Origin: an uncultured Nitrososphaeraceae archaeon
GTDB lineage: Archaea; Thermoproteota; Nitrososphaeria; Nitrososphaerales; Nitrososphaeraceae
DNA length: 29,784 bases
Reading direction: 5' to 3'
NCBI GenBank assembly: GCA_963779615.1
Contig: CAVZZA010000002.1
Span: 1-29,784, forward strand
Shown here: one piece after another, positions 1,540 to 28,553 of the stretch
Position numbering within the stretch: the stretch's first letter is position 1
How the letters are laid out: each line of letters starts with the position of its first letter
The notes under the pieces: model-generated
The model's input: only the letters and a program-made list of their open reading frames with translations
Told to the model about the DNA's origin: nothing
The model's database searches: none
Made by a program: the position numbers and the translations under genes

Positions 1540-1560
1540 GATTCAAACCCCTTGGGCCCA
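1540..1560 (+). repeat. tRNA 3'-end-like att remnant (GATTCAAACCCCTTGGGCCCA)
   Basis: T-loop-like ATTCAAA + 5 nt + 7 nt acceptor strand TGGGCCC + A, 30 bp after the DJ-1 stop. Confidence 0.4.
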
Positions 1561-1628
1561 AATCTTTGTTCATTATGGGTTTAATTAAGAAAACAGTAAC
1601 AATAATTTATTCGACAGCAGAGAAATGA

Positions 1629-1992
1629 TCAATGCAATATCCATATCAAATCCTGCAAAATTAATTGATCTGTGAACCTCAAAATTGTATCGTTAAAAGT
1701 ATAAATCCGACCCGGCCCATATAGATTTTGTTGGTTATTATAAAGTTTATTGTAATTATTTGAATAATCATGGACATTCGATAACAAATTTTGGTTCTTG
1801 GATATTATCAGGGTATTATTAGTCATATTAGAAAATGTATGCAGTTCCTCATTTACTGTATACGGTTTTTTGTCCATGTTATAATGGATATTGCACGTGT
1901 TGCAATAGTGGCCTATCTTCTTGAACGAACCCTTAACCCTCCCTAATGTAGGTGGAGTTAATACCGTGATGACAACTTTGGCATTTGGCCAT
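1629..1992 (-). pseudogene. Small Zn-ribbon (CxxC...CxxC) ORF reading into the att core; possible split-integrase N fragment
   Basis: MAKCQSCHHGINSTYIRE / frameshift / VKGSFKKIGHYCNTCNIHY...NNYNKLYNNQQNLYGPGRI; nucleotide homolog at 15927-16220. Confidence 0.6.
1705..1800 (+). repeat. att-like site, type B core ATCCGACCCGGCCCAT plus conserved tail
   Basis: Identical 16-mer at 15927 and 20904; tail TTTATTGTAATTATTTG shared with copies at 15927 and 22427. Confidence 0.85.
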
Positions 1993-2159
1993 ACCTCTAA
2001 TTTGTAAGTCGGATTAAAGAACATATTGAAAAGACGGGGGCTCTAATGGTGACGGTGAGTCTCCTTGTCCATTTTACTGGCGTAGATAAAGATCAGCAAT
2101 TGCATCAGAACAATATTTACTACGGCGGTCATATGGACGCTGCTAACCTATAATATCAA

Positions 2160-2410
2160 TAATCTTTTTTCGCTTCTTCAAGCATCTTGCACCCGACCAA
2201 GCTAATAACATTTGTATCCTTTTCCTCCGATGAATTATCAGGTCCACTTTGTGATGCTTTTTGAATGTTCTTCTATTAGATAACTGTGTTACCATCGTTA
2301 CCACCATTCTTTGCAAATGTTGAAGGTGCTGTTGTAGATGTGAATGTTGCTCCTATTACTAATGCTGCTGTCAAGACAGCAACTATTGCTAGAGTTTTAG
2401 CGCTGTTCAT
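2160..2410 (-). pseudogene. Secreted low-complexity protein, interrupted by stops
   Basis: MNSAKTLAIVAVLTAALVIGATFTSTTAPSTFA signal peptide, then GGNDGNTVI**KNIQKASQSGPDN. Confidence 0.55.
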
Positions 2411-2612
2411 TTCGTAATCATTCAGTAGAATGTTATATATATATTTGAGTTGATGAAGTTATTGATTTATAATTACTGATTTATTTAATATGTTTTAATT
2501 GATGTTTTGTTTAACATAATTTGTTACTAACTTGTTTTGTATGACTATTGACAATACTAAATGAGGAATAGTTATTCATCTATTAATTAACAGTATTATT
2601 TGCTATGAATAA

Positions 2613-2716
2613 AGTAGATATCCATTATAGTAGTAGATATCCATTATAGTAGTAGATATCCATTATAGTAGTAGATATCCATTATAGTAGTAGATATCCA
2701 TTATAGTAGTAGATAT
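2613..2716. repeat. Tandem repeat, 19-bp unit AGTAGATATCCATTATAGT x5 plus 9 bp
   Basis: Perfect head-to-tail copies without spacers. Confidence 0.97.
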
Positions 2717-2755
2717 TTTAGGAATATCTTTTCTAAGAAGAAACAACACGCCACT

Positions 2756-2971
2756 CCAGGTAAATCACTACATGATTGGGCTCAAAGCACAGCCGAAGCG
2801 GAGTATATTATTTAAAAACAGACTATAGAGAATCAAACAATACTAGGTCCATCTCTTGGTACCGGAACTACTGGAAAAGCCGCGTTAAAGTTAAATAGAA
2901 AATTCATAGGCATCAAAATTGAAGAAGACACTTTTAATATAGCAAAGAGTAGCATTGCTGAGTTTCTTAGA
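2756..2971 (+). pseudogene. C-terminal remnant of N4/N6 DNA methyltransferase
   Basis: LHDWAQSTAEAEYII*KQTIENQTILGPSLGTGTTGKAALKLNRKFIGIKIEEDTFNIAK matches the VLDPFxGSGTT...RKFIGIEI SAM-binding motif; internal TAA, no 5' part. Confidence 0.8.
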
Positions 2972-3150
2972 GTCACTGTTCAATCAAGAATCTATCTTAA
3001 TTTGCTTTACTCCGGTACTGAATTTATTATCTTAGTGATGATGAGGAAGATGAGAAACCAGAGGATGATCCATCAGAGGATAATGAAGGTGGGAAGTGGG
3101 CCACTTTGTAATCCAAATCTATTTAAATCACCATATTTCACAGAACCTAT

Positions 3151-4008
3151 TTGAATAGGATAACAAAGTCGTCATTGCCTCTATCTTTGTTGATTATCTC
3201 CACTGTGGGAGTTTTATCCCATTTTGGCACAGATTTATTAGCACAGACTCCTGTCACTACAACCTGTGATCCTAATGCTCAAACACTTAAGAAAGGTAAC
3301 GCAGGTGAGATTGTTGTTACACTACAGAATCTATTAGTGGAAAAAGGGTATATAGATAGAGATTATGTAGATGGAGACTTTGGACCCGGTACAGAGGCAG
3401 CTGTTAAACAATTTCAAACAGATAATAGTTTGACTGCAGATGGAATTGTTGGTCCTGCTACATGGCAAGTATTATGTTCAACCGCAGTACCACCTTCTGA
3501 TGAAACACCAGGAATGATGAGCTGTCCTGATGGTAGTGTAGGTACTTCATGTCCGGCAGAAACTTCTCAGACTCAGCCAAGTGTTAACAAACAGATTACC
3601 GCATCTTTGGATGTGGCCGATTCAATTTATAGCGCTAATAAAACTATGTTCTTAGGTTCAAAAAATATATCATTAACCCCTTATCCAGTGACAGAGGAAC
3701 GTTCCTCTGACCAAGGATTCCTAAAAGGTGTAGGAAATGTTACTAACAATCAGACTTACATAAGCACTCACTTATCTGATGAATTAATCCAGAGTACGGG
3801 TAATGGGACATTTGAGACTCAAGATGGAGAAAGTATTGCTTGGATCACTTCTGCTATAGGAAGACCGGTTGATGGTAGTTGGGTTTTCCATGAAATAATA
3901 TTATTCAACAATACGCAAAGCAAATCATTGGCTCTACTAAATAATAGCATCGGTTTAGTCAAGTCTACTGTTGGCAATGAACCGGATTACATCTGGCTTT
4001 TAGAGTAG
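3151..4008 (+). CDS. Secreted protein with peptidoglycan-binding (PG_binding_1) domain
   Basis: Signal peptide; LKKGNAGEIVVTLQNLL...DGDFGPGTEAAVKQFQTDNSLTADGIVGPATW; P/T/S linker; uncharacterised C-terminal domain. Confidence 0.88.
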   Translation: MNRITKSSLPLSLLIISTVGVLSHFGTDLLAQTPVTTTCDPNAQTLKKGNAGEIVVTLQNLLVEKGYIDRDYVDGDFGPGTEAAVKQFQTDNSLTADGIVGPATWQVLCSTAVPPSDETPGMMSCPDGSVGTSCPAETSQTQPSVNKQITASLDVADSIYSANKTMFLGSKNISLTPYPVTEERSSDQGFLKGVGNVTNNQTYISTHLSDELIQSTGNGTFETQDGESIAWITSAIGRPVDGSWVFHEIILFNNTQSKSLALLNNSIGLVKSTVGNEPDYIWLLE

Positions 4009-4403
4009 AGATCTTTTTCGATGCCTAGATTGATTACCTGCTGTTTGTTTGATTCACTAGCTCCACGTGCTCCTCCAACGGCAAATTTAGTTGTTGCCTG
4101 GCATGCAAACCTAACATTTCAGCTACAACATCTACACCTATAGTATACTCTAGAGTATCTCTTGCATCCATAGTTTGTATCTGTGCAAAATATGCAGATA
4201 AAATAGAAATTTTTCTAGAAAAGAGAACCAACCATATTCCGAGCCTCGTATAGCTAAACTAGTTTTCAATATTGCTCTGACTAGGAAAGGCAATATTCCT
4301 ACATCAAAAAGGGATATTAGTTCGCTATCAAATATCAAAAAATCATTGAAAATCCCTGTAACAGAGAAAAAAATTATAGAATCCTAGATAGTATAGACAG
4401 AAT

Positions 4404-5003
4404 ATGAGAAAGATTATTATTCTCACGTTTATATCCCTGGATGGTGTCATGCAGGCACCAGGCGGACCGGAGGAAGACACTTCAGGTGGATTTGAATACG
4501 GTGGATGGACCGTACCATACTTTGATGAATTCATGAACAGGGTGATGGTGGAGCAAATGACTAAACCTTTTGACTTACTGCTTGGAAGAAGGACATTTGA
4601 AATATTTGCCTCATATTGGCCGAAACATGAAGATAAATGGCCTGGTATCAACACAGTAACAAAATATGTCGCCTCAAACTCACTTACAAAACATGAATGG
4701 AATAATTCTGTCTTCTTAAAAGGAGATGTTGCAAATGAAATTAAGAATCTGAAAGAACAAGATGGTCCTGACTTGCAGGTTTACGGCAGCGGCAATCTCA
4801 TCCAGACATTATTAAAACATGATTTGGTCGGCGAACTCTGGCTCAAAATCTTTCCTATCACGCTCGGAAAAGGAAGGAAACTTTTCACCGAAGGCACCAT
4901 CCCCGCAGGTTGGAAACTTATTGATTCAAAAGTATCACCACGGGGAGTCATCGTAGCTAACTACAAACGTGAGGGCGAAGTCAAAACCGGCTCCTTTGCC
5001 TAA
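4404..5003 (+). CDS. Dihydrofolate reductase-like (RibD C-terminal) protein
   Basis: MRKII...SLDGVMQAPGGPEEDTSGGFEYGGW, LLLGRRTFE, VYGSGNLIQTLLKHDLV, LGKGRKLF. Confidence 0.93.
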   Translation: MRKIIILTFISLDGVMQAPGGPEEDTSGGFEYGGWTVPYFDEFMNRVMVEQMTKPFDLLLGRRTFEIFASYWPKHEDKWPGINTVTKYVASNSLTKHEWNNSVFLKGDVANEIKNLKEQDGPDLQVYGSGNLIQTLLKHDLVGELWLKIFPITLGKGRKLFTEGTIPAGWKLIDSKVSPRGVIVANYKREGEVKTGSFA

Positions 5004-5273: not shown

Positions 5274-5449
5274 GTGGCAAAATTGAGTCAATTCTGTTCC
5301 ACATCCAACCGGATTCGAACCCGGTTTTTAATAATATTGAATAGAGAATACTATCTGTTTTAATTTCCTTTAATATTCCATCTGTTTATTTTTAAGGATT
5401 TTGGACTATCAGTCGTTCCTATTTCTATAAACCCTAACATGATTTGTCA

Positions 5450-6702: not shown

Positions 6703-6740
6703 TTAAAGGCAAAAATATCGTGCAAACTACCTGGCCCATA
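6703..6740 (+). repeat. Degenerate type B att-like site
   Basis: TTAAAGGCAAA arm starts 21 nt before AAACTACCTGGCCCATA (13/17 to ATCCGACCCGGCCCATA). Confidence 0.65.
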
Positions 6741-6840
6741 CCAATGACATTGCAAGATTCAATTATCTTAACTAAATCGTTAAGGTCATTATCATGATTA
6801 TTATAATAAGAATTCAAGTCGTTGCAAAATAGTAAAAGAG

Positions 6841-6878
6841 ATTACATTCAAATCTGAATCTTTATCCCCACGGGCCCG
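6841..6878 (+). repeat. Type A att-like site (core ATCCCCACGGGCCCG)
   Basis: ATTACATTCAAATCTGAATC arm similar to 19751 and 20791; core 14/15 identical to 18877-18891. Confidence 0.75.
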
Positions 6879-7104: not shown

Positions 7105-7140
7105 GATTACATCCAAATTTGACAAATGTCCGACCCTGCT
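7105..7140 (+). repeat. Degenerate att-like site
   Basis: GATTACATCCAAAT arm, TTA 21 nt before GTCCGACCCTGCT. Confidence 0.55.
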
Positions 7141-7794
7141 TATGTCAACGACATTTAATGTTATATGATCAATCAAAATGAAATATAATTATTCTATCAT
7201 TTTACTCTCAATTCAGTTCATTTGATAAATGCGATGTAGTAAAGATTACATTGAAACAGCATGTATGTCATGTGGCTGAGGCCACAATGTTGACCTGTTC
7301 CTGCAAAACTTTAACACACTTAAAAGTTCGAGAATTGGCTTGGCTTGGTGCAACTGTTTTGCAGTATCATAATCTGTAGAAAGACAATTTTGGGATAGGC
7401 TCTAAATAATAGTTAAATTCCTTGATAATATTTTCGTTTCATTTAGATATTTGTATTATAAGAAAAGTGGACTCTGCTCAAGTAACAAAAAAAGCCTTAT
7501 GCCATTACAGCATGTTTATGAATATAATCTTGGCATTTACGGATAAAAATTCTAATAATTTTAATTATGGAAACGATTTTGAATTTAGTGATAATTTAAT
7601 AATACTAAAGAAAGTAAAGTCATTAAGGCAGTTGAGAAGGACAGAGAAAGAGTTGGTTAGGCTAAACTACATGGGGGTGATTATTAAGGGCTTTACCTTA
7701 AAGGGTACACAGCAGTATATACCAACCAAGACAAAGATATGGATAGAGTGGTCCTGCCTAGAATACCTCAAGAAGGCGGAGGAGCAGGAGAGCA

Positions 7795-8242: not shown

Positions 8243-9025
8243 TTATCCGTTGTTTTGAGGTCTTATTTGCTCAATAGTGTTTGAGACAAGTTGTTCTACA
8301 GTTTCTCTTGCCCTTTCAACTAAAGGTGAATCTTGATGAGACATCAATAATTTATCAAACTTTATCTTAGAAAGCCTTTGTGCAGAGATCACCGCAGTTA
8401 CTGGATCTATTGATACAACAGCTGGAGCAATATACATATGGTCTGCACCAAATACATTCTTGTAGATGCTGTCTGCACCAAAAATAGTTCTATCTTCACC
8501 ATAATAAAGTGATATGTGGCCTGGTGTGTGTCCTGGCGTATGAATGACCTTAAGACTACCAATCATGTCTCCATCGGACACTTGATTATCTACGATTATA
8601 GGCTCTAATTCCATGCTTCCAAATTTCTTTGTTAACTCTTCTTGCGAAAGTCCAGACTCTTTGAGTATATTTTGTATTGCTTGAGCAGTTGGAGGACCAG
8701 GATATGGCGGATTATGGGCTAAATATCCTGCCTCGATCCAATGAGAATAAATTTTAGCACCTGTTCTATTTCTTATCTCATTAGCTGCTTGCGCATGATC
8801 AATATGTAAGTGAGTCAAAATAACACGTTTTATATCCTTCATGTTGTAGCCTAAATTATGTATATAATCCTCTAGTATTGGCAGTTGTGGAAGAAATGAA
8901 GGATCAATTAAGGTTAAATCATCTGCATCTACATTTTCTATAAATAAATAAGGAACAACCTTTCCACCAGGATAAGGATGGGTAAATCCATCTATTGAAT
9001 GTGCTTGCTTTGTTATTTCAACCAT
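8243..9025 (-). CDS. MBL-fold metallo-hydrolase
   Basis: THLHIDH metal motif, HTPGHTPGH, GAD and C-terminal SH. Confidence 0.93.
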   Translation of the reverse strand: MVEITKQAHSIDGFTHPYPGGKVVPYLFIENVDADDLTLIDPSFLPQLPILEDYIHNLGYNMKDIKRVILTHLHIDHAQAANEIRNRTGAKIYSHWIEAGYLAHNPPYPGPPTAQAIQNILKESGLSQEELTKKFGSMELEPIIVDNQVSDGDMIGSLKVIHTPGHTPGHISLYYGEDRTIFGADSIYKNVFGADHMYIAPAVVSIDPVTAVISAQRLSKIKFDKLLMSHQDSPLVERARETVEQLVSNTIEQIRPQNNG

Positions 9026-9677: not shown

Positions 9678-10949
9678 ATGACTAGACCTCAAATTCATTG
9701 TCTATTGGCCTTAGTATTGGTCGTTGCGGTCTCAATTGGATTAATACATCCATTTAATTCTGTCATAGCTCAACCAGCAGTATTAAAAGATCCCAATCTA
9801 AAGGTGGAGTTAGTAGCTCAGGGATTACAACCTTCTACAAGCATGGCATTCTTGGGACCAAACGACATTTTAGTATTAGAGAAAGAAACTGGCACAGTAC
9901 AGAGAATTACAGATGGCAAAGTGCTTTCGCAACCCCTACTTCAAGTTCCTGTTTCACCAACAAATGAAAGAGGTATGCTTGGGATTGCTATTGCAAAGCA
10001 CAATAATGGTCCTACATACGTCTTCCTGTACTATACAGCACCTGGTGGTGGTGCACAATCACTCGCAAATGTTCTTTATAGATATGAATTGGTAAACAAC
10101 AACCAACAGTTAGCCAATCCCAAGCTTCTGCTAAGTCTCCCTGCACTTCCCGGCACTAACCATAATGGTGGCAAGGTAGTTGTTGGTCCTGACAATAACG
10201 TATATGCTGTTATCGGTGATCTCAAAACCCACAGAACCCAAACTGAGAATGTGGTCAATGGACCGCCTGCAGATAGCACCGGAGGTATACTAAGGGTTAC
10301 ACAGGACGGTCAGCCCGTACCAGGCCCTCCACTTGGGCAAGCTACGGCTCCTCTAAATCTGTATTATGCATATGGGGTACGCAACAGTTTTGGGATTGGC
10401 TTTGATCCTGTGACCAACAATCTATGGGATACCGAAAACGGTCCTAAATATGGGGATGAGATCAATCTTGTTCAACCTGGATTTAACAGTGGATGGGCAC
10501 AGGTAATGGGAACATCAGCTCCAGAAGGGACAATAGGAAAAGAGACTGCTGGACAAGTCATTTCTAATCCATCATCCAACTTGGTAGACTTTGCAGGAAA
10601 AGGCAAATACAGACCTCCTGAATTCACATGGTTGAAGCCGGTAGCTCCTACAGCACTAAAGTTCCTTGATTCTGTAAAACTTGGCAAACAATACCAAAAT
10701 GATATGTTTGTAGGGGACTACAAAAATGGCGATCTTTATCACTTCAATCTAGACCAAGCTAGAACAGGGCTAGCTCTTAACGGAACACTAGCTAACAAGA
10801 TATCCAATACACCGCAGGACAGTCAACCATTAATATTCGCCAGTGGATTTGATGGCGGAATTACGGACTTACAGGTTGGACCTGATGATGGCTACCTCTA
10901 CGTTCTTACATTTGCAGGTTCAATATACCGAATAGTTCCAACTTCTTGA
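9678..10949 (+). CDS. PQQ-dependent sugar dehydrogenase (GSDH family), secreted
   Basis: Signal peptide; ERGMLGIA, HNGGKV, YAYGVRNSFGIGFDP, WDTENGP, DEINLVQPGFNSGW. Confidence 0.95.
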   Translation: MTRPQIHCLLALVLVVAVSIGLIHPFNSVIAQPAVLKDPNLKVELVAQGLQPSTSMAFLGPNDILVLEKETGTVQRITDGKVLSQPLLQVPVSPTNERGMLGIAIAKHNNGPTYVFLYYTAPGGGAQSLANVLYRYELVNNNQQLANPKLLLSLPALPGTNHNGGKVVVGPDNNVYAVIGDLKTHRTQTENVVNGPPADSTGGILRVTQDGQPVPGPPLGQATAPLNLYYAYGVRNSFGIGFDPVTNNLWDTENGPKYGDEINLVQPGFNSGWAQVMGTSAPEGTIGKETAGQVISNPSSNLVDFAGKGKYRPPEFTWLKPVAPTALKFLDSVKLGKQYQNDMFVGDYKNGDLYHFNLDQARTGLALNGTLANKISNTPQDSQPLIFASGFDGGITDLQVGPDDGYLYVLTFAGSIYRIVPTS

Positions 10950-11184
10950 CTGGTCCTTTAAGATAACAAGTTTCGGGATAAATTCTCATGGAAACCCGTT
11001 TTTAAAAGTCAAGGGTGAAGCCGGAAGAACTGTCCTAGGTAACAGTGATTCTGCAGTAGAATTCGTTTATGAATTGTTTACTAATAAAGGGATATATGTT
11101 GCCGCATCAGATGGTGGCAAATATGTATCTCCAATTATTACTTTTAAGAATGTATATGGTGAACGCTGCCTGGATTCAGCAAAG

Positions 11185-19488: not shown

Positions 19489-19744
19489 ATAGATCTCAAC
19501 CTGTTGATGGTATTGAAAAGAAATAATGATAATAAATGGGGAAATCTATTTCTTATTTATGTAAAATACATTAGGAAGGGCCGCTCGTCAATAAGGAAGT
19601 AAAGGATACAACTTTGTTTTGCATATTCCGGAACCAGAACAAGGGGCTTTGCAAGCATTCCATAGGGAGACCATTTACTGAAACTAAAAAAGGATAGAAT
19701 CTGGAAAACAAAACTGGGATTTTATTGATTATAGTGTATAATAA

Positions 19745-19782
19745 GTCATGATTATATTCAATATTGAATCGTATCCCCACGG
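19745..19782 (+). repeat. Type A att-like site (left flank of DHFR cassette)
   Basis: GTCATGATTATATTCAATATTGAATCGTATCCCCACGG, direct repeat of 20784-20824. Confidence 0.8.
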
Positions 19783-20105
19783 ATGTATTCAACCGGCGAG
19801 AAAATATACCGAGATAGTCGAGGCTAGTTTTTTTAACTATCTGGGGAATAAAAATCCAATGCATTATGTAGTATCAAAGTATTAGTGTTTAGAAATTCGA
19901 AAATCAAAATGGAACTGTATAAAAAGAAAATTATGGAATAAAATAAACTTGTGATATACTTTTGATCCCTTCTATACTTATTAGGTATCTGTATGTCCTA
20001 TTCCTTGTGACTAATCCATATTTGCAGGAATGTCTTTTTGAATCAATGAAATTAATCAGAAGGGAAAGCAGGATCTTGAAATAAGAATTGTAGGGGAGAG
20101 TATAG

Positions 20106-20702
20106 ATGAGTAATAATAATAACAAAATAATGAGAAAATTAAAACTACATGTAGGAATGTCCATTGATGGCTGTATAGCAGGACCCAACAATGAAATGGA
20201 CTGGATAGACTTTACTTGGGATGAAAAACTCAGAGAATATGAAGACAAGCTGCACGAACCAGTTGATACCATTCTCCTGGGAAGGAAAATGACTGATGAA
20301 TTTATCGCAACCTGGTCTAATTTTGTGAAAAAACCCGATGACCCCTGGAATGCATTCGCTAAAAAAATGATGGAAACACCAAAAATTGTCTTTACTAAGA
20401 CGCTCAATAAATCAGAGTGGCCAAATACTGAAATTGCAACAGGTGGCCTCAAAGATGAAATTACAAAGTTAAAGAGTCAAGAAGGTGGTGATATCATAGT
20501 TTATGGTGGTGCCTCATTCGATTCTTCCTTGATTAAAGAAAACTTAATCGACGAATTTTATTTATTTGTTAATCCTGTAGCAATTGGGAATGGAAAGACC
20601 ATTTTTAAGGACCTAAAAGAGATCCGTAAACTATCTCTTGTTGAATCTATAGCGTTTGACTCTGGAACAGTTTTGCTCCACTATGAAGTAAAGAGAAATT
20701 GA
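20106..20702 (+). CDS. Dihydrofolate reductase-like (RibD C-terminal) protein
   Basis: MRKLKLHVGMSIDGCIAGPNNEMDW, ILLGRK, IIVYGGASFDSSLIKENLIDEF, IGNGKTIF. Confidence 0.93.
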   Translation: MSNNNNKIMRKLKLHVGMSIDGCIAGPNNEMDWIDFTWDEKLREYEDKLHEPVDTILLGRKMTDEFIATWSNFVKKPDDPWNAFAKKMMETPKIVFTKTLNKSEWPNTEIATGGLKDEITKLKSQEGGDIIVYGGASFDSSLIKENLIDEFYLFVNPVAIGNGKTIFKDLKEIRKLSLVESIAFDSGTVLLHYEVKRN

Positions 20703-20783
20703 AGGTAGACATCTGAGTAAAAAAGAAAGGAATTGATTATTTCTTATATTTTATTTCCCTTTTTTTGACATATACCATCAACT

Positions 20784-20835
20784 GTCATGGATTATATATG
20801 CAATCTTGAATCACATCCCCATGGGTTCGAACCCG
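20784..20835 (+). repeat. Type A att-like site (right flank of DHFR cassette)
   Basis: GTCATGGATTATATATGCAATCTTGAATCACATCCCCATGGGTTCGAACCCG. Confidence 0.8.
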
Positions 20836-20870
20836 TATATAAAAAAATTAAAATAGTTGTTTACAAGTAT

Positions 20871-20965
20871 TTGACCTGTAAATTATAGGCAAATATGACC
20901 TGCATCCGACCCGGCCCATGTAAACATTATATATTCTTATGTAATTAATTACAATTATTTCAATA
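20871..20965 (+). repeat. Type B att-like site
   Basis: TTATAGGCAAAT arm starts 21 nt before ATCCGACCCGGCCCAT (20904-20919); diverged tail. Confidence 0.88.
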
Positions 20966-21180
20966 TTTTTTGACATCATCATTATATTTTGTAAAAATAT
21001 GAAACAATTTGAATGTTCCTTATATGTTGACAAGAACATGACTGATGATTAAGAAAATAGGGTGGTGGATATTCCTATCTTTTATATAAAACTCCCTTTT
21101 GTGTTTTCATTATTGTTTATCTTTATCTTTTGGTAGGAAAATGACAGCATAGTAATATAATAACATAATTTTTGTATAAT

Positions 21181-21229
21181 GTTATTTGTTTTTTTTTGTT
21201 TTTTTTTGTTTTTTTTTGTTTTTTTTGTT
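21181..21229. repeat. Simple sequence repeat (G followed by ~9 T, about 4 units)
   Basis: Directly visible T-tract with ~10-bp period. Confidence 0.85.
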
Positions 21230-21300
21230 AGTTTTAAGAAACACGTGTAAAGAAATTGTATCTTGCTTGCTCAAGTGTTATCAAATAAATACAGAATATT

Positions 21301-22236
21301 CTAAATTTCTTGGCATTGATTGTTGTTGTTATTCTTTATCAAATCCAAAGCCAACAATGCACTGTTTTCTTTGTCTTTTATCTCCAACATTATGTCTGCG
21401 GCAGCCATGGGTTTCTTCTTGGAAGATTTTACTAATTCTTTATAATATGAAATAAAATGATTTTTGTCAATAGTTTTTGTATGTTTCCCTTTTCTTTCAC
21501 CTATGCTTTGGCTACTGTAGTCCATGATAGGATCGCCATCCAAAACATATTTCCATGTGTTGGTTGCGGATGTTAATGCTTCTTGTACGGTCTCGTTGTT
21601 GTTTAGACACTCATGATGGAGAGTGTCAAAAACAATTGGAATGCCTGTCTCAAAGCTAATATCCATACAATCTTTTAAAGCATATGATCTGTCGTCATTT
21701 TCAATTATGATTCTCTTTTTCAGGTTCTCTTCCAATTTCATAAAGGTTTTTATGAATCGTTCCTTTGATGTTCTTTTATCTTCATAAACTCCTCCAATAT
21801 GAATTTGAATTTTTGCATTGTGTGTTAAATTCATGCTCTCCAATACTTTAGAATGATATTGTAATTCTCTAACACTATTTTCAATTATTTTTTCATTTTT
21901 TGAATTGAGAATAACAAATTGATCTGGATGCATTGATATTCGCATGTTATTTTTCTTTATGAATTCGCCAATTTCGTTTAATTCTGTTTTAAATATGTAA
22001 TCCCAATCAATGTTGCATATTGGGTGAGATGCAAAAGGTATTATGCCTGAACTTAATCTAAAAAACAAAATATTATTGTTTAAATTAAATTTTAATATCT
22101 TTGATAGATGGTTAAGGTTGTTTTTTACAGTTTCATTAAACCTTTTTTCGGAAAATGATTTTAATCTAAATGTTGAAGAATAAGGGTTTTTTAAAGTTAA
22201 ATTTATGCAAGGATAGCCTATTTTCAACAACGTCAA
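21301..22236 (-). CDS. uvsE: UV DNA damage repair endonuclease UvsE/UvdE
   Basis: KIGYPCIN, FFRLSSGIIPFASHP, RISMHPDQFVILNS, IHIGGVY, IENDD, VFDTLHH, DIMLEIKDKE. Confidence 0.96.
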   Translation of the reverse strand: MTLLKIGYPCINLTLKNPYSSTFRLKSFSEKRFNETVKNNLNHLSKILKFNLNNNILFFRLSSGIIPFASHPICNIDWDYIFKTELNEIGEFIKKNNMRISMHPDQFVILNSKNEKIIENSVRELQYHSKVLESMNLTHNAKIQIHIGGVYEDKRTSKERFIKTFMKLEENLKKRIIIENDDRSYALKDCMDISFETGIPIVFDTLHHECLNNNETVQEALTSATNTWKYVLDGDPIMDYSSQSIGERKGKHTKTIDKNHFISYYKELVKSSKKKPMAAADIMLEIKDKENSALLALDLIKNNNNNQCQEI

Positions 22237-22393
22237 CTCAAATTATATTTTTGAATTTATTATTATTATTTATATCCGATACTATCGATATTGCATAATT
22301 TATTAGAAGTCCACTCTGGATGAGATGGATGATTAATAGAATTCAAAAGTTAACCATTTATTCTTGATTTATTTCTCTATTTTATTATTTTAC

Positions 22394-22490
22394 TTAAAGT
22401 CTGGATTATGGGCATAGTTGGTCCGTATGTAACCCGGTCCATATATAATTGCAGTTTATTATCGAATTTATTGTAATTATTTGAATATTA
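22394..22490 (+). repeat. Type B att-like site
   Basis: TTATGGGCATAG arm starts 21 nt before ATGTAACCCGGTCCAT (22427-22442); tail TTTATTGTAATTATTTGAATA. Confidence 0.82.
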
Positions 22491-22831
22491 ACCGTTGTGG
22501 ACTTTATACCCGTAGGAATAGATCCAATTGATACTGCCTTCAACCGTACAACGGCTTTATGTATGTGGCAAACGGCGTTAGCAATACCATCTCAGTCATA
22601 TACAGCGCTACAAACACCGTTATAGACACAATTCATGTGGGAACACGGCCATTTGGCATTGCCTTCAACCCAGAGAACGGGTTTTTGTACGTGGCAAACT
22701 TTGGTGGCAACACCGCCTCTGCGATAGCTCCACTCACAACCACATTTTCGGAAGGGTGCAACGGCACAGTAGGCAAAGCAGGCCAGGCAGCCGCATGCAC
22801 AGTAACCAGCGCCTGTGGAAGGCTCGCTTAG
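22491..22831 (+). pseudogene. YVTN/YncE beta-propeller repeat protein fragment
   Basis: TVVDFIPVG..P...AFN / YVANGVSNTISVI...TVIDTIHVGTRPFGIAFNPENGFLYVAN; lacks 5' end. Confidence 0.8.
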
Positions 22832-23087
22832 CGTATTTTTTCACAGCCATGCCTTCCCATGCAGTTCATAAGCCCCTTATTTTTCAGTCAGTCTTGTAAC
22901 CAAGACTTGGCTCACATACAGAATCTGGATCCACACTTTCATCTGGCCTTGATATGAACAGTCTTGTGGTCGGGCCAGGCAGCCACTTCCCCCGCTGCTA
23001 GGAGCCATACCATTGAACAAAATCTATTTTCGGGCCGCTTTAACGTCGACAACGTCCTAAGGGATTAAGGGTTTTGGGTTGTTGTGG

Positions 23088-23355
23088 TTAACGCCCTGCC
23101 GCAAGGACAGCCCTAAACCGTGCCCTGCCACCCAACATTAGGGCGTAGGCTTGTGCTGCTGCACGCTCCAGGGAAAAATCCTCATTCATGGGCCTCACCA
23201 GGAAGCATGCTGAAGGCGAGCGTGCCTTGAGTCCAGGGATGGACTGCCAGTCCAGCCCGCCAGCCAAGGAGTCAAACGGTTGTGCCATGAAGAGTGACTC
23301 AGAGTGACTCATTTGCTACCGGCAAATCTTCTGCCTCCCTCATCCTGATGTCCAT
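23088..23355 (-). pseudogene. Hypothetical ORF frameshifted by a 10-bp tandem duplication
   Basis: AGAGTGACTC x2 at 23291-23310; removing one copy gives an 85-aa ORF MDIRMREAEDLPVANESLFMAQ... Confidence 0.35.
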
Positions 23356-23494
23356 GCCGCGTTACACCAATCTGTGGCGTATCTTCGGTTTACCTCTCAT
23401 GTGGCTTCATAAGCGCCTATAAATGTCTATATAGTCTATATAGTCTATATGGTGAGGTTATATAAGCAGTTTGGCATATGAGTATATGACATAG

Positions 23495-24112
23495 TTGAGA
23501 AGATCGCCATACTACTGCCCGGCTTGTGATACAACGATGGGAAGAAGGTCTAATGCCCTGCGACACCTTGAAGACGTACACCACAACAAGGGGGTGCTAT
23601 ACGACAGGTCAAAAAATCCTGTGGACACTACAGCCAAGGCTGCTGTGCCGATTTGGTTGGATAAGAAACCCCGGCTTGATGGCGGCAGTCTTCAGGGTGC
23701 AGAAGGAAGCCCAGGCAATGATGGCGTGATGCCTGGCCACCAAACTGCCATCAGGGAAGGCAATGCTGGTGGCGGCAAGAGTGAGGATGAGGTTTACTTT
23801 GGCCGTATAGGGGAGCTTGGTTTGCCATTGGATGAGCTGGATGCCCTGCTGTCTGACCACTTTCCACATGTGAAGGGGAAGGTACTCGGAATGGTGATGT
23901 TGGAGGCTTTTGCATCTCAAAACCCAGTCAAGTCTTTTAGGGAAAGCCTGTCCCTGTGCAAGAGCATATCATGCTCAAACAGGATTGTGGACTGCATCTC
24001 GACCTATTGCAGCATACCCAAGCCTGTGGCAAACAGCCTTGTTAGAAACTCGGTTTTGGGTAACGCAAAGCCAAAGTGGGGCGACAGTGTGAAACACCGA
24101 TCTCCCGGATGA
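23495..24112 (+). CDS. Protein with N-terminal C2H2-type zinc finger
   Basis: YYCPACDTTMGRRSNALRHLEDVH. Confidence 0.75.
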   Translation: MRRSPYYCPACDTTMGRRSNALRHLEDVHHNKGVLYDRSKNPVDTTAKAAVPIWLDKKPRLDGGSLQGAEGSPGNDGVMPGHQTAIREGNAGGGKSEDEVYFGRIGELGLPLDELDALLSDHFPHVKGKVLGMVMLEAFASQNPVKSFRESLSLCKSISCSNRIVDCISTYCSIPKPVANSLVRNSVLGNAKPKWGDSVKHRSPG

Positions 24113-24729
24113 AAACGGCAGTTGTAGCTGATGGTTATGCATAAGCATTGCAGTCAAAGCATGGGGTGCAACAGCTGCAGTTGTTGCGCCACTTGGCAGC
24201 TGCCCACTATCACCAAGGGATGTTGATCCATGTGCCAGATCAAATTGGCATGGATCGGGATAGGAATAAGCTGATCATGCAGTTTCAGTCCGTACCTTCT
24301 AATGAATTCTCACCCAGCCAAATGCTGTACCATGCTACCCTAGCATTCTTGGATGTTTCAAATATGGCGACAGGGGGGCATGAGCTGTTACCCTTGATCA
24401 ACCGCTTAAACCGCTTTCCGATTGCATAAATACATCTAATTGATGGAACTTCTGTCCATTCGGCTTGTTGCCAAATCTTTCTCCATCGCACCAATCCTTT
24501 TGTGTCGATTGTCTGAAAAACTTCTAAACTAATGCGAGGTCAAGCAATAAGCTAGTTCAGACAACAAGTGTCGTCTTTCAGAATGTTGCCGGGAGGCCAA
24601 TAGTTGACAGCCGATTGAGGGCAAAGGACAATGCTGCAGACGGGTTCAATGACCCGAGCAAAAACACTCAGCAGCAGCAGCAGCAGCAGCCGTAGTCTGC
24701 CTGTGTGTGTTCCTGCATTCCAAGTCAAC

Positions 24730-25351
24730 CCATTATCACACCAACCGGCAACCTTCTGGTCACAAAGAGCTTCCCTGTCCTAGTGGATTTGCCGGCCCAC
24801 CTACATCAGAATTTACAATGCGTGTAACGCGTGCAACCAGGCAACCGAAACCCCAATCCCCAGTTCTTTCCCAGGCTCTGACAGCGGCACCACGATTAAG
24901 TTCGATGTCGGTAGATACAACATCACCGAGGACTTTGAGGACAACGCATCGTCGCAGCTAAAGGTTATGAAACATTGCCGAAGGCTGCAACGGCATCATC
25001 GAAACAGCCGGTAAGGCAGGATATGCAACGTAACAAACGAATTTGTGGTAAAGGATTACCTGTTTTTGAGCAAGTGGGGATCCCATTGGCTCCGCCGACG
25101 GCCAGCTCAATCGTCCGTTTGGCTTTGCCGTGAACCCGTCAACATGCAGCGTGTATGTGGTAGATACCAGCAACAACCGAATCCAGGTGTTCGACATCAC
25201 TGGCAACTTCATAGCGAAATGGGGATCCTTTGGTACCGGCAACGGCCAGTTTATGTTTCCAGTAGAAGTGGCCGTTAATCCCGCAACAGGCAACGTGTAT
25301 GTGGCTGACTCCCGCAACAACAGAATCCAAGTGTTTTTCCTGAACCCCTGA
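24730..25351 (+). pseudogene. Degraded surface protein: beta-sandwich domain plus NHL repeats
   Basis: Multi-frame NPNPSSFPGSDSGTT...YNITE...EGCNGII; then KWGS/GSADGQLNRPFG..VYVVDTSNNRIQVFD...KWGSFGTGNGQFMFP..VYVADSRNNRIQVF. Confidence 0.8.
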
Positions 25352-25955
25352 CCTGCCACTTGCCAAACCGGGAACACGTTATAGAAGGCTGGCAAACAGT
25401 AGCCACCGCCTGTCAGTCAATACAAACCTATTTTTTTGGCAGATAGGATGGCTTTGTTGATATTCCACGATCATAATTGCCCTTGGTACCCGCATTTGAA
25501 CAGGTCTTTATCCCTATGAGGCAATAATGAATCCGGCACCAGCAGATCACTCCGGGGTCAAGACTTTACCATATTCTTTGTTGCTCTATGCAGACCAAGA
25601 ATCCCTCTTGCATGTTGCTGTAGACGCAACATTCGAAATCATGCAATAAATTGAGCATGCCTACAAATGGTACAGGTTATAAGCCATACTACTTTGTTAA
25701 TCCTCATTGAGCGATAGCGGTTCTTCCTCTGACTCTCCAGCACCTAAATCAAGGACAGCGTGATCTTTAGGCTCCTACGGCCACCTTGCCCTGTTTATCC
25801 TCCTTGTTTCTGCCCACCTTGTCCGGTTGTGCGGTGTCTCCCCTAATGACAAGACTTTTGCACCTTTCAAAGACTTTTTAATAATTAACATATTGACGTA
25901 GAAAAAGCATATTAAAATTGATAAACTTTAAAATTATCATCACCTAATAAAACAA

Positions 25956-26003
25956 TAGAATCCTTTTTAAGAACCCGTATCATCACCAATCCCACTAGAC
26001 CCA
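25956..26003 (+). repeat. Degenerate att-like site
   Basis: TAGAATCCTTTTTAAGAACCCGTATCATCACCAATCCCACTAGACCCA aligns with 18843-18891. Confidence 0.65.
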
Positions 26004-26133
26004 TTTTTGAACTATTTTAACATTTAACTGTTTTTTCTTTGATAATTAATTAAAACTCAAAGTTGTCCGTTAACAATAAGAATCTGGCCTATACATTAAA
26101 AAAATCGTATTATTCTTTTCATTAAATCAAATT

Positions 26134-26171
26134 TTGGATTACAGGCATATAAATGGCTTGTAAACGACCCG
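26134..26171 (+). repeat. Degenerate type B att-like site
   Basis: GGATTACAGGCATATAAATGGCTTGTAAACGACCCG, most similar to 28514-28553. Confidence 0.65.
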
Positions 26172-26523
26172 AAAAAAACAATTGCTCCATTCATAAATTA
26201 AAGTTGTAATTACTACAAAGATCGCACCTAACAGCAATAATCTCTTTTTTGAAGATCATTCATTTGATTATGGCGTGCTATTAAAACCACTGTTCTAAAA
26301 GTCATGTCTTATAATTATTATTATGACATTAAGAATATTATTTCCTTAATGGAATCAAGATGTTGTTTGAGAATTAAGCCCATTATAACAAGTGATAATG
26401 GTGAGTTGAAATTGGAAAAAATCAATTTGTTTTCGGGACCTCCAAAGTCGGAAAACCTCAAATTCTAAGAGATATACGCGATAAAATGCCAGTTAAAAAT
26501 AAATTGGTCATTTTCTGATTCCT

Positions 26524-28029
26524 GTGTATTGGAAAAATAATTTCTTAAAAATGAAATTGGATTATTGTCTTGTTTTTTTGGTTATTTTTGCCGCAGGATT
26601 TGTTCATTCCATGTCATGGTTATCAATACCCTGTTTTTGTGGGAAAGCTTATGGACTTGCCGATAATATCAAACTAGCAACAAATTCAACCATAAGTCAA
26701 CCAAAAATTGCAAGTTTTGGCGCATGGACATCAAATCAATTTCCTCTAGAGTCTCTTCCAAACCGCAATGACAAAATAATGGCTATGGACTTGCTGTTAA
26801 AACAGGGATACAAAGAATATTATTTTGTGCTCAAAGATTACAAATCCGAATCAAAACAATCTCAAACTGCCAGTCTTTTGGGTGCCGCCGACAATACAAC
26901 TTTGAGGATGATTCCAATATTGTTGCCCCCTTCCGAAGGTGGAGAAAATGGCAATTATGATTGGGAGGGGTGGATAAAGTATCTCAATCTGCTAAAGTCA
27001 AGTCACCCTTCCCTTTATGGTTTTGTGATAGATGACTTTAATTGGTTTGGCACCAGTGAAGGCAAGGATAAAAAAGATGACGGTCTTGATGGAAAGCAAA
27101 AGATACAAGAAAACGTCAAATTTATGATAGAGTCAAAACTAGATAGGGCGCTACAACACAAAAGAAATGATTTGAATTTTTTTCCTGTTGTTTACCTTGA
27201 GGGACTGGGCACAAATGATGTCAAAAAATATTTTTATGATTATTCTGATGGCATTGTTTTGGCTAGCTCAAACTATTACAGTGTGGCTGATCTTCAGCAT
27301 AATCTAGATACGTTTTCCAAAGTGTTCCATAAAAAGCCATTAAAGTTTGTACTGTACACTGCAAAAACATCCAATTTTGCTGAACAAGGATATGATCCAC
27401 CATCAGATCGATTGATCCTCGCCACATTGTCAATAGCAAACAAAACTAAAGGGATTGATGAGATAGTGATATGGCGTAACACAAATAGCCATGTGATTCG
27501 AGATTACTTGTCTAACATTAACGATAAACAGTTTCTGTCATTTGTTTCGTTGATGGAAAAGCTGCAGTTAAAGGATGAAACCCAATCCAACGCACCCGAA
27601 TTGTCGTCCCATATACTGTCAAGTCAAAAAAGCAAAAGTGAAAATCATGAGGGTAACAATTCAGGAGTCTATTTGGCATCTTCAACTCCATGGCTGGGTG
27701 TTTTTGTAACTGACTTGTCGCCATCAATATCGGAAGAAATGGGGTTACCTGAACATACTAAAGGGATATTCATTCAATCTGTTGTTTCCAATAGTCCAGC
27801 TGAGAGGGCGGGATTAAACGGTGCTATTTTAGATGTGGATAGCAATGGATATCTAACAAGAAAAGGGGATGTAATAATATCCGCAGACGGAAAAGAAATA
27901 GGAAAACCAAGTGATCTCACAAAACAAGTCGGGGCAAAAAAACCTGGCGATCTGCTAACGCTTGGAATAAACATAAATGGTAATGTGTTATTTAAAGCAG
28001 TAAGGCTAGGGTCATTGCCTGGTTATTGA
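26524..28029 (+). CDS. Secreted protein with putative TIM-barrel/glycoside-hydrolase-like domain and C-terminal PDZ domain
   Basis: Signal peptide (likely start ATG 26551); YGFVIDDFNW; PWLGV...GIFIQSVVSNSPAERAGL...GDVIISADG PDZ signature. Confidence 0.85.
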   Translation: MYWKNNFLKMKLDYCLVFLVIFAAGFVHSMSWLSIPCFCGKAYGLADNIKLATNSTISQPKIASFGAWTSNQFPLESLPNRNDKIMAMDLLLKQGYKEYYFVLKDYKSESKQSQTASLLGAADNTTLRMIPILLPPSEGGENGNYDWEGWIKYLNLLKSSHPSLYGFVIDDFNWFGTSEGKDKKDDGLDGKQKIQENVKFMIESKLDRALQHKRNDLNFFPVVYLEGLGTNDVKKYFYDYSDGIVLASSNYYSVADLQHNLDTFSKVFHKKPLKFVLYTAKTSNFAEQGYDPPSDRLILATLSIANKTKGIDEIVIWRNTNSHVIRDYLSNINDKQFLSFVSLMEKLQLKDETQSNAPELSSHILSSQKSKSENHEGNNSGVYLASSTPWLGVFVTDLSPSISEEMGLPEHTKGIFIQSVVSNSPAERAGLNGAILDVDSNGYLTRKGDVIISADGKEIGKPSDLTKQVGAKKPGDLLTLGININGNVLFKAVRLGSLPGY

Positions 28030-28113
28030 TGTTGTAAATATTTTACTAAAAAAGGATACTCCTTATGGTTGGCTCCCACAATGCCTGTCCTGCGAAGATG
28101 GATTCTATTTATC

Positions 28114-28488
28114 TAGAGCCTATATGAATTCTTCAGATTAATGTTTGTCTTTGAAAGAAGTATGGTTTTGGCGGAACGTTTTATCCCTTCTCGTTGACAA
28201 ATAAGTATGGCAAGTATTCGGTTTTAACAACGGATGACGGTGACCAAGGCTCGAGGGCATCCTGCCCAAGCCTGTAGTTGATAAGTAGATCATCGCATTC
28301 ATTCTCCATTTGAGAAAAGCCTGATAGGGAGAAAGACTGATGCATCAAAGATAGGGCCAAAAGGGGTTTAACGATTATTATTTTCCATGGTGGACAAGGA
28401 ACTGCAAACTAAAGCATGCAAAAAACCGGGTTCACCTGTTTGTAGATCACCATGACAAAGAGATAAAAGTGCTTAAATGAACAGAGCC
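28114..28488 (+). mobile_element. IS6-family remnant (degraded transposase 3' part and right end)
   Basis: ERSMVLAERF, KYGK, HRIHSPFEKSLI, NCKLKH; end AAATGAACAGAGCC matches the 11597-11610 end. Confidence 0.75.
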
Positions 28489-28503
28489 GGATTGTTATTG
28501 TAG

Positions 28504-28553
28504 TTAAACTGCAGGTTACAGGCACAAATGGCCCGCAAACAGATCCGACCCAT
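28504..28553 (+). repeat. Type B att-like site upstream of second integrase remnant
   Basis: TTAAACTGCAGGTTACAGGCACAAATGGCCCGCAAACAGATCCGACCCAT; arm nearly identical to 15894-15914. Confidence 0.75.

Follow-up and report, generated by a model that had tools for sequence, protein, structure and literature searches.

A probable tRNA-anchored gene-cassette array, partly decayed, in a Nitrososphaeraceae archaeon

The window analyzed here (29,784 bp, 37% G+C) is the entire contig C2 of a 3.17-Mb, five-contig genome assembly of an uncultured Nitrososphaeraceae archaeon. It is probably a segment, now partly decayed, of an array of gene cassettes anchored at a tRNA gene, and belongs to a genus-wide system that works like a chromosomal integron. 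The recombination sites of the array share one orientation and consist of a conserved arm followed by a core derived from the 3' end of a tRNA gene. The clean examples of the system are found in sister genomes; the window itself is worn, integrase-less, and ridden with insertion sequences (ISs). A preliminary description, made from the letters of the window, had interpreted it as a platform on which cassettes accumulate at tRNA-derived sites, and we retain this interpretation with the corrections given below. The host genome encodes archaeal AmoA and is therefore that of an ammonia-oxidizing archaeon, which fits the earlier assignment to a probable archaeon.

The host genome is labeled G000 and its contigs C1–C5; the remaining G numbers denote 33 other genomes of the genus (34 in all). 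X1–X4 are four soil or outdoor metagenomes, the assembled Logan contigs of which were placed on window positions 15800–28777. Each public run covered at most 0.20 of the sampled words of the window, and positions without contig cover are uninformative. Sites were scored with nhmmer profiles (Ag for the Val type, B1g for the Lys type, and famB2) built from sites of the window and of sister genomes. Some of the sites listed in the preliminary description went into these profiles and therefore match them by construction.

Recombination sites of the window and their tRNA origin

Seventeen co-oriented sites had been proposed, and every one of them lies on the plus strand. The profiles recover 14 of the 17 at E<0.05 (1705, 6724, 6864, 7128, 14546, 15927, 18877, 19773, 20815, 20904, 22427, 25989, 26162, and 28538). 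The sole minus-strand profile match at E<0.1 is a palindrome within site 19773, and no independent match is present on that strand. Site 1540 is backed by the end of tRNA-Met(CAT) (last 20 nt, one indel) and not by a profile, and sites 16697 and 18740 have degenerate Lys-type cores, both of which are breakpoints in metagenome contigs. The earlier list is thus supported in what it contains and incomplete, since two more sites lie at about 618–660 and about 5277–5312. Judged against Pfam-supported genes, the sites are all intergenic, as had been stated; the unsupported minus-strand open reading frame (ORF) 1629–2024 alone overlaps a site, the one at 1705. The sites are as follows.

618–660, plus strand: B2-arm site with a degenerate core, absent from the earlier list (nhmmer famB2, E=0.007)
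1518–1560, plus strand: Met-type site 1540, arm AATTGAG...CCTTACCT followed by the 3' end of tRNA-Met(CAT) (compare C3:264819–264892)
1705–1722, plus strand: exact Val-type core (15 nt + TAT) with the Val right arm, usual left arm missing
5277–5312, plus strand: site at the left breakpoint of a 7-kb block shared by C2 and C3, absent from the earlier list
6705–6738, plus strand: degenerate Val-type site (nhmmer Ag, E=3.7e-5)
6840–6878, plus strand: Lys-type (B1-arm) site, exact core ATCCCCACGGGCCCG
7105–7142, plus strand: Val-type site, degenerate core (nhmmer Ag, E=6.6e-7)
14515–14560, plus strand: B2-arm site, Ala-like core, 16 of 17 positions as in the 3' end of tRNA-Ala(TGC) (famB2, E=5e-13, site in profile)
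15904–15944, plus strand: Val-type site, exact core, complete left and right arms
16668–16706, plus strand: Lys-type site, degenerate core and variant arm; X3 contig break at 16697
18711–18754, plus strand: Lys-type site, degenerate core, 14 of 16 positions as in the end of host tRNA-Lys; X3 divergence at 18744
18842–18891, plus strand: B2-arm site, Lys core with 1 mismatch, integrase-type right arm (nhmmer, E=2.4e-13, site in profile)
19750–19782, plus strand: Lys-type (B1-arm) site, left edge of a RibD_C cassette (nhmmer B1g, E=1.7e-11)
20789–20825, plus strand: Lys-type (B1-arm) site, right edge of the RibD_C cassette (nhmmer, E=1.6e-6)
20881–20921, plus strand: Val-type site, exact core
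22404–22444, plus strand: Val-type site, arm retaining tRNA-Val sequence
25955–26003, plus strand: B2-arm site, Ala(GGC)-like core, 14 of 17 positions (nhmmer, E=2.4e-12, site in profile)
26136–26176, plus strand: Val-type site, decayed core (nhmmer Ag, E=1.5e-9)
28515–28552, plus strand: Val-type site, core with an insertion (nhmmer Ag, E=1.4e-10); X1 joint ends at 28549

The sites exceed the cores reported earlier, which had been described as tRNA ends only. Each 9–18-nt tRNA-derived core is preceded by a conserved, non-tRNA left arm of 23–45 nt. The Val-type arm reads GATTACAGGCAAATATGACCTGC, the Lys-type B1 arm GATTCTATTCAACCTTGAAYCGT, and the B2 arm TAGAATCC..TTTAA...CCGATATCA..., each followed by the core. 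The fourth arm class is of the Met type, and its arm also precedes a repeat of the tRNA-Met core at C3:251175. Inverted repeats are present within the Lys-type arms (TTCAA..TTGAA) and the Val-type arms (CAGG..CCTG). Val-type units of the window are 1.5–8.8 kb long and enclose shorter Lys-type units. Lys-type sites are interleaved with the Val-type ones and often form doublets 90–260 nt apart.

Core A, ATCCGACCCGGCCCA, is exact at 1705, 15927, and 20904 and has a copy with three mismatches at 14546. These four matches (at most three mismatches) compare with 0.18 expected, and four were reached in none of 100 shuffles. Core B, ATCCCCACGGGCCCG, is exact at 6864 and has one mismatch at 18877 and three at 20815, giving three matches against 0.12 expected. 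The only other genomic copy of the core A 15-mer is the 3' end of tRNA-Val(GAC) on the minus strand of C3 (1007674–1007748). The identity between core A and this tRNA gene covers 15 nt and the following TAT, and thus extends three bases into the downstream flank. At site 22427, 28 nt of the tRNA-Val T-arm and acceptor strand are still readable with five mismatches; the Val-type arm is therefore itself what is left of a tRNA 3' half.

In three sister genomes (G043, G015, and G032), the 3' end of tRNA-Lys(UUU) is identical to core B. No host tRNA matches it exactly, and the intron-containing tRNA-Lys of the host (C1:648007–648099) agrees with it at 13 of 15 positions. We assign this tRNA to tRNA-Lys(UUU) from its anticodon loop, CTTTTAA; the label given by ARAGORN is wrong. 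The T-stem of the host tRNA-Lys carries a compensatory change relative to the sister species (GTGGG/CCCAC versus TGGGG/CCCCA). The Lys-type cores of the window fit the tRNA-Lys of the sister species and not that of the host, which hints that the units were acquired from another lineage or are older than the change. The right flank of site 18877 is nearly identical to the flank after tRNA-Lys in G043. Sites 14546 and 25989 resemble the ends of tRNA-Ala genes. The match of the cores to tRNAs, which the preliminary description had set as a test of its reading, was therefore found, but the sources are at least four tRNAs (Val, Lys, Met, and Ala) and not the two it had supposed.

Other identities of the sites were considered and rejected. 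A tRNA-like fold or a known RNA family is not indicated, as ARAGORN finds no tRNA gene in the window and Rfam gives no family match there at E≤1. The left arm is not minus-strand coding sequence: although an ATG overlaps the core, the frame shifts between copies and only short peptides result. Classes of right flank were dropped as markers of cargo, since GGATGTATTCA precedes RibD_C in the window but does so in only one of five such units in G043.

Arrays in sister genomes and the host, and strain differences at the sites

The Lys-type arrays of sister genomes contain 20–30 or more co-oriented 32-nt sites spread over 90–130 kb behind one tRNA gene, usually with one integrase nearby. In G043, the tRNA-Lys gene that heads the array stands before an intact integrase of 421 aa. 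Beyond the integrase, 31 sites extend across about 91 kb, all of them in one orientation. The median spacing of the sites is 1515 bp, and 14 of the 32 intervals contain exactly one ORF of at least 80 aa. The cargo includes PNPOx, an alpha/beta hydrolase, DUF1428, a Na/Ca exchanger, three RibD_C proteins, SNase, a methyltransferase, and a cupin; eight of the 20 scanned proteins, the integrase among them, lack a Pfam family. The array on the single contig of G015, about 130 kb long, begins with tRNA-Lys and an integrase. A B2 site, not a tRNA, precedes the integrase in G031.

A 24-nt site pattern, with up to three mismatches allowed, occurs 20 times forward and never in reverse in G015; the corresponding counts are 1 and 29 in G032, and 1 and 25 in G043. 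The pattern is present in 23 of the 34 genus genomes, and the reversed-pattern control gave zero in all 34. A 32-nt module, GATT..ATTCAA..TTGAA.CGTATCCCCACG, is common to 76 sites from the loci examined; it has abrupt edges and is nearly invariant at most positions. Within each locus, every site of this set is on one strand. The Val-type site is present in 22 of the 33 other genomes, and in six oriented tRNA-Val regions all matches lie on the tRNA strand, with 11 further sites over 42 kb in G043 and seven on C3 of the host. G011 has an intact integrase directly after tRNA-Val and no array. Nucleotide synteny of the tRNA-Val islands across species could not be used, as the genomes are too divergent (65–80% identity) to define the far flank.

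Integrase genes are few relative to the sites. A tblastn search at E<1e-5, which very decayed or short remnants would escape, shows a single integrase match in 100 kb of G043 and no further remnant there or in 40 kb of G004. The counts are one integrase per 31 sites in G043 and two remnants per about 17 sites in the window. Intact integrases of the same family stand directly after tRNA-Arg(GCG) and tRNA-Ala(TGC) in the host, and a more distant tyrosine-recombinase gene adjoins tRNA-Val(TAC). The R...HxxR...H...Y signature of tyrosine recombinases is kept in four of four aligned integrases. The family scores weakly on curated models: a host paralogue reaches 27 bits on PF00589, and the integrase heading the G043 array reaches 34.5 bits on NF040815 (XerA/integron-integrase; cut-off 220), with no Pfam match at E<0.001. 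A sequence search of the PDB with the array integrase gave no meaningful match, the best being an unrelated kinase at E=0.38. Intact integrase genes start about 60–110 nt after the tRNA in G043, G015, G011, and host contigs C3 and C4. Similarly, integrase starts lie about 70–190 nt past cores 18877 and 28538 and past the tRNA-Val gene.

Within the host genome, a Val-type site profile of about 100 nt has 14 matches at E<1e-6, of which 13 are in C2 (plus strand) or at 971–1000 kb of C3 (minus strand). The C3 sites are downstream of the tRNA-Val gene and on its strand; the lone outlier is at C3:187498. The co-oriented tRNA gene that had been expected to the left of the window is thus found on C3, at the head of a mosaic homologue of the window. 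The preliminary description had stated that even scatter in both orientations, as in a miniature inverted-repeat transposable element (MITE) or a repetitive extragenic palindromic (REP) sequence, would speak against it. Instead, the Val-type sites are co-oriented and almost confined to C2 and the tRNA-Val island. B2-arm sites occur at some 20 further places in the host genome, and the B2 arm also ends integrase-carrying elements at other host tRNAs. Elsewhere in the host, five repeats of the tRNA-Met 3' end are spread across 92 kb (C3:172382–264892), and C2 503–681 is 80% identical to C3 261173–261343, downstream of tRNA-Met. Two exact repeats of another tRNA's end lie at C4:251943–277483, and their internal junction carries an integrase fragment.

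A self-spreading or regulatory intergenic repeat (MITE, REP-like sequence, or terminator), the tRNA likeness of which would be incidental, hardly seems credible as an explanation of the sites. They are short, intergenic, and numerous like such repeats, their arms hold the inverted repeats described above, and the B2-arm sites extend to the some 20 additional places. The cores, however, are the 3' end of the heading tRNA and change together with it (Val, Lys, Met, Arg), and integrase genes follow them at a fixed distance. The copies in arrays are all in the orientation of the tRNA, and the sites are confined to islands and are not distributed genome-wide in both orientations and independently of tRNAs, as MITE or REP sequences are. 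The absence of Rfam matches in the window at E≤1 and the rejected minus-strand coding of the arm also argue against a repeat of this kind.

The window is a mosaic variant of the C3 island. C2 5305–12336 is 97.6% identical to C3 1001870–994833, C2 21015–24220 is 90% identical to C3 987130–983937, and C2 25128–28777 is 95% identical to C3 983936–980297; outside these three blocks the two are unrelated. The first block, of 7 kb, begins exactly at a core (about position 5296), to the left of which C3 has a B2 arm and C2 a Met-type arm. C2 may be a second chromosomal copy or another strain's allele of the C3 island. Very unlikely, in our view, is an assembly or haplotype artefact, in which C2 would be a second strain's copy or a mis-assembled copy of the C3 island, with the array inflated by collapsed repeats. 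This explanation draws on C2 being a stand-alone contig of 29.8 kb with a terminal IS that shares 99.9% identity with two further copies, on its three blocks 90–97.6% identical to C3 980–1002 kb, and on the contamination estimate of the assembly (2.28%). The sites themselves are unaffected by the status of C2 as paralogue or allele, a like architecture is present in C3 and in the single contigs of G015 and G032, and independent metagenomes carry parts of the window at 95–99% identity.

These metagenomes contain strains that differ from the window at the sites. A 979-nt contig of X1, about 96–98% identical to the window, lacks an IS and joins 17617 to 18666. The same contig joins 18884 to 20842, and the junction falls past the eighth core base of site 18877. 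The 18 letters after this junction correspond to the right half of site 20815 in an allelic form. The strain therefore lacks both the unit with the integrase remnant and the RibD_C unit. A k-mer mis-join is improbable because the joined sites have no 31-mer in common. Two contigs of X4 diverge at 18884, the same base as the X1 junction. An X3 contig matches the window from 16697 rightwards and has a canonical B1 arm on its left, and X3 contigs diverge at 18744, inside core 18740. Another joint in X1 ends at 28549, inside core 28538.

Individual units of the window also recur in other genomes. Unit 16701–17605 has a counterpart of 88% identity in the G043 Lys array, with the homology starting inside the core. 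The unit 659–1555, which carries a DJ-1/PfpI gene, recurs in G041 at 85% identity, and the match stops at the Met-type core. The RibD_C cassette (19750–20821) has more than 60 matches among the genus genomes, and B1-bounded copies with differing neighbors are found in L021, L024, and L026. Breaks at the sites, which had been named as a test of the cassette interpretation, are thus seen between strains in metagenome contigs and between copies at the start of the C2/C3 block and of the unit shared with G043.

Proposed mechanism, weighing of the evidence, and known systems

A unit usually carries one accessory gene, sometimes a few, and ends in a 23–45-nt arm and a 9–18-nt core. The core has the same sequence as the T-loop, T-stem, and acceptor end of one specific tRNA gene. 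A divergent tyrosine integrase, intact beside the head tRNA of several arrays, may recombine the cores pairwise. Units would be excised as circles, inserted, and reshuffled at the sites of the array, and would accumulate in one orientation downstream of the anchoring tRNA. Candidate crossover sequences are ATCCCCACG and ATCCGACCC. Conservation stops right after ATCCCCACG, so the crossover probably occurs within this 9-mer or at its right edge; in that case, the site of each unit would lie at the unit's right end. Because the B2 arm ends integrase-carrying elements, we take B2 sites to mark where autonomous elements end on the right, and read B1 and Val-type arms as signs of units without an integrase.

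The window may then represent Val(GAC)-type units mixed with a Lys(UUU) run, in which Lys-type units are nested in Val-type ones; the interleaving of the sites and the doublets fit this arrangement. The stray Met- and Ala-type sites could be nested insertions. The window contains three IS copies, one IS fragment, two integrase remnants, and no intact integrase, which amends the preliminary description. As its integrases are remnants, any present-day movement of its units would need an integrase from elsewhere in the genome.

Several observations weigh against this interpretation. The mobility of the units is deduced from differences between short assembled contigs and not from reads; circles, excision junctions at the read level, and enzyme activity were not seen. 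The window has neither a tRNA gene nor an intact integrase, its cores at 7128, 26162, 16697, and 18740 are decayed, and the interleaving of cores from four tRNAs is unexpected for a system of single specificity. Its Pfam-supported genes, which are mutually unrelated, lie on both strands. Only one of the four outer ends of the C2/C3 blocks is at a site; the others are at an IS, beside a MITE-like repeat, and at nothing recognizable, and the internal junction 24220/25128 is a difference in repeat length. The right end of the unit shared with G043 is at no site in that genome, where 18 of the 32 intervals do not contain exactly one ORF. A tRNA heads the array on the single contig of G032, but the nearest integrase is about 14 kb away and on the opposite strand. 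The host tRNA-Val(GAC) gene is followed by an integrase remnant of about 60 aa. Array-internal Lys sites continue after ATCCCCACG with CGCCCA and not GGCCCG, and would not rebuild the acceptor stem of the tRNA. Entry at the tRNA is therefore doubtful, and new units probably enter at sites within the array.

The main and serious rival is that the window is a graveyard of autonomous elements that inserted serially at tRNA-Val and at secondary sites and lost their integrases, leaving att scars and random cargo without any cassette mobility. Such a history would account for the two remnants of integrases, the three ISs and one IS fragment, and the several decayed cores of the window. Serial integration at tRNA genes has a precedent in the islands of Prochlorococcus, where older elements are displaced inward by new ones, and fragmented integrases and partial tRNAs stay behind (10.1101/2020.12.28.424599). 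Archaeal elements with tyrosine recombinases re-use one site, according to the sections used of a survey of such elements (PMC6563490). Similarly, host tRNA-Ala(TGC) is followed by an intact integrase and by an exact 15-nt repeat 39 kb downstream, the tRNA at C4:251943 has two repeats, and tRNA-Met has five over 92 kb. Decay would, however, have to delete all integrases while sparing a sharp-edged 32-nt site and intact single ORFs. Sister genomes have 20–31 well-conserved sites behind a single integrase over 90–130 kb with a median spacing of about 1.5 kb, and the tblastn search described above detects no other remnant of an integrase, either in the array of G043 or across 40 kb of G004. Close relatives differ by entire units with breakpoints in the cores, and the "empty" doublets of sites 90–260 nt apart are hard to obtain by random deletion. 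We therefore regard the graveyard as rather improbable, and a cassette array as the better description of the window.

Integrons are the textbook example of a system that stores and reshuffles single genes, and to our knowledge their definition rests on a single recombinase clade (IntI) and a single type of site (attC). The arrays described here resemble chromosomal integrons, such as the Vibrio superintegron, in being long and co-oriented, in consisting mostly of single unrelated accessory genes with one site per unit, and in reaching about 100 kb or more. One tyrosine recombinase gene is located at the head by a fixed anchor, and unit content varies among close strains with breakpoints in the sites. 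Gain and loss of such units of about one gene, as read from assembled contigs, is the behavior of a cassette array. The differences are equally distinct. The integrase is not IntI by profile score (34.5 bits where the cut-off is 220, with 27 bits on PF00589), and the anchor is a tRNA 3' end instead of attI. The 32-nt sites with a tRNA core are conserved in sequence, whereas attC sites are hairpins conserved in structure; covariation cannot be read from the sites because the inverted repeat TTCAA/TTGAA is invariant. The integrase gene is co-oriented with the tRNA and the array and lies between the two (G043 and G015), whereas intI is divergent. As cargo is on both strands, a single promoter such as Pc cannot serve all units. 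The functional likeness to an integron proposed earlier is strengthened by the very long single-integrase arrays of sister genomes, but the system is not an integron in the family sense, since it lacks IntI, attC, attI, and Pc.

The arrays also resemble the cis-mobilizable elements (CIMEs) and integrative and conjugative element (ICE) accretion of streptococci, and the pdif modules on Acinetobacter plasmids, in which non-autonomous, site-bounded units pile up at one site with the recombinase located elsewhere. These bacterial arrays consist of one to a few units and use other recombinases and sites.

The arrays share two features with archaeal tRNA-targeting elements (pNOB8-like, non-partitioned): cores that are direct repeats of the 3' part of a tRNA gene in its orientation, and an integrase with R..HxxR..H..Y, the gene of which is intact beside attL. 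Thaumarchaeal integrated mobile genetic elements (iMGEs) have att sites with a median of 17 bp, and 39 of 68 elements are in tRNA genes, as given in the portions used of the survey (PMC6563490); short tRNA-derived att sites and their re-use in archaea are covered in the corresponding part of a review (PMC8371274). iMGEs and tycheposons share with the arrays the insertion by tyrosine recombinases at tRNA 3' ends, short att sites, and older elements pushed inward with partial tRNAs and integrase fragments. As far as those excerpts go, they comprise few integrase-carrying elements and debris. The arrays, in contrast, have 20–30 or more sites about 1.5 kb apart with one or two integrases, one-gene units, and a conserved non-tRNA arm. 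Integrons reported in Archaea are of the classical kind with attC, judging by the title and term counts of the report (148 attC, 0 tRNA; 10.1101/2022.02.06.479319, PMC9668308); they are likewise cassette platforms in archaeal genomes, but the IntI and attC that characterize them were not found here. The literature searched contains no description of tRNA-anchored single-gene cassette arrays in archaea, nor arrays with dozens of conserved sites, single-gene units, and one or two integrase genes; supplementary tables, for example Table S2 of PMC6563490, were outside its scope.

A broader proposition, which we consider evenly balanced, is that the genus independently invented the integron principle with a tRNA 3' end as the anchor, a non-IntI integrase, and a 32-nt site. 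It would maintain dozens of single-gene cassettes over 90–130 kb, about 3–4% of the genome, in parallel and nestable Val, Lys, and probably Met systems, and the window would be a mixed Val/Lys segment whose units differ between soil strains. If true, this would be a second, mechanistically independent system of the same architecture, making the cassette array a convergent solution, assembled in archaea from the usual components of integrative elements that target tRNA genes. A concrete mechanism would then underlie the flexible gene pool, large as it is, of soil ammonia oxidizers; among the cargo seen are genes for detoxification, redox, repair, surface, and transport functions, together with many whose function is unknown. 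The system would also be a natural intermediate between tRNA-accreting elements and a dedicated gene-capture platform, and so bear on the origins of integrons. The 32-nt site and the tRNA anchor could serve cassette-targeted PCR or metagenome mining of archaeal accessory genes, like the attC methods in bacteria.

Genes, insertion sequences, and other features of the window

The genes, gene remnants, and ISs of the window are as follows.

935–1510, plus strand: DJ-1/PfpI family protein (PF01965, E=3.3e-16)
3151–4008, plus strand: PG_binding_1 domain protein (Pfam, E=1.2e-17)
4404–5003, plus strand: RibD_C (dihydrofolate-reductase-like) protein, paralogue 1 (PF01872, E=8.7e-22)
8243–9025, minus strand: metallo-beta-lactamase-fold hydrolase (PF00753, E=9.5e-26)
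9678–10949, plus strand: glucose/sorbosone dehydrogenase (GSDH; PF07995, E=5.5e-45)
11184–11610, minus strand: fragment of a multi-copy IS-like repeat (weak DDE_Tnp_IS240 match; more than 50 blastn matches genome-wide)
12610–14298, minus strand: Ser/Thr protein kinase with TPR repeats (PF00069, E=7.4e-33, and TPR families)
14580–15791, plus strand: IS with a DDE_Tnp_1 transposase and 30-nt terminal inverted repeats, between two sites
17617–18669, plus strand: IS with HTH_Tnp_4 and DDE_Tnp_4 and 22-nt inverted repeats, missing in a related strain
18965–19470, plus strand: integrase remnant, N-terminal part only, frameshifted (tblastn aa 5–170 and 100–213, 58–61% to host integrases)
20106–20702, plus strand: RibD_C protein, paralogue 2 (Pfam, E=4.3e-25)
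21301–22236, minus strand: UV-damage endonuclease UvdE (PF03851, E=1.6e-64), in a single-gene 1.5-kb unit between Val-type sites
22491–25400, plus strand: fragmented beta-propeller repeat genes with 144-bp internal repeats, length-polymorphic
26524–28029, plus strand: PDZ-domain protein (PF13180, E=1.9e-10)
28610–28777, plus strand: beginning of an integrase gene, interrupted by the terminal IS; 28728–28778 is 86% identical to 19019–19069
28778–29784, minus strand: IS with DDE_Tnp_1 at the contig end, 99.8–99.9% identical to two other copies

The integrase start at 28610–28777 has an N-terminal motif in common with the aligned integrases, as read from its letters. Homologous fragments of a gene for a small CxxC (zinc-ribbon-like) protein lie on the minus strand at 1850–2024 and 16080–16232, immediately to the right of two Val-type sites. 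The same arrangement is present after tRNA-Val in G043, and the gene may be element-borne and belong beside the site.

The transposase of the IS at 17617–18669 is split into two ORFs. At least 25 copies of this IS are present at 72–79% identity, and a metagenome strain has the empty site. The segments 11184–11610 and 28286–28488 are parts of a 0.4–0.6-kb repeat with more than 50 diverged copies (67–82%), which occurs throughout the genus. The weak match to an IS240-type DDE domain suggests that the repeat is probably an old IS6-like or MITE family.

The PG_binding_1 gene is part of a 1.07-kb unit (2967–4036) that recurs in seven other genomes of the genus at 84–93% identity, with constant ends, differing flanks, and no att-like sites beside it. 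It is possibly a mobile unit of another kind. B1-like decayed sites at about 2960 and 4033 were considered and dropped, as copies of the unit at three other loci have no att-like sites and differ in their flanks.

The beta-propeller family (NHL/YNCE-like) is also present at C3 983873–983936 and at 263–273 kb of C4; C3 and an X2 contig are about 0.9 kb shorter. A perfect 19-bp tandem repeat with the unit AGTAGATATCCATTATAGT, in about 6–7 copies, occupies 2594–2735 in a gene-poor stretch. T-rich 10-nt repeats, TTTTTTTTTG, lie at 21169–21235, just past the 3' end of UvdE, and a 32-nt stretch identical to part of them is found at C5:815994–816025.

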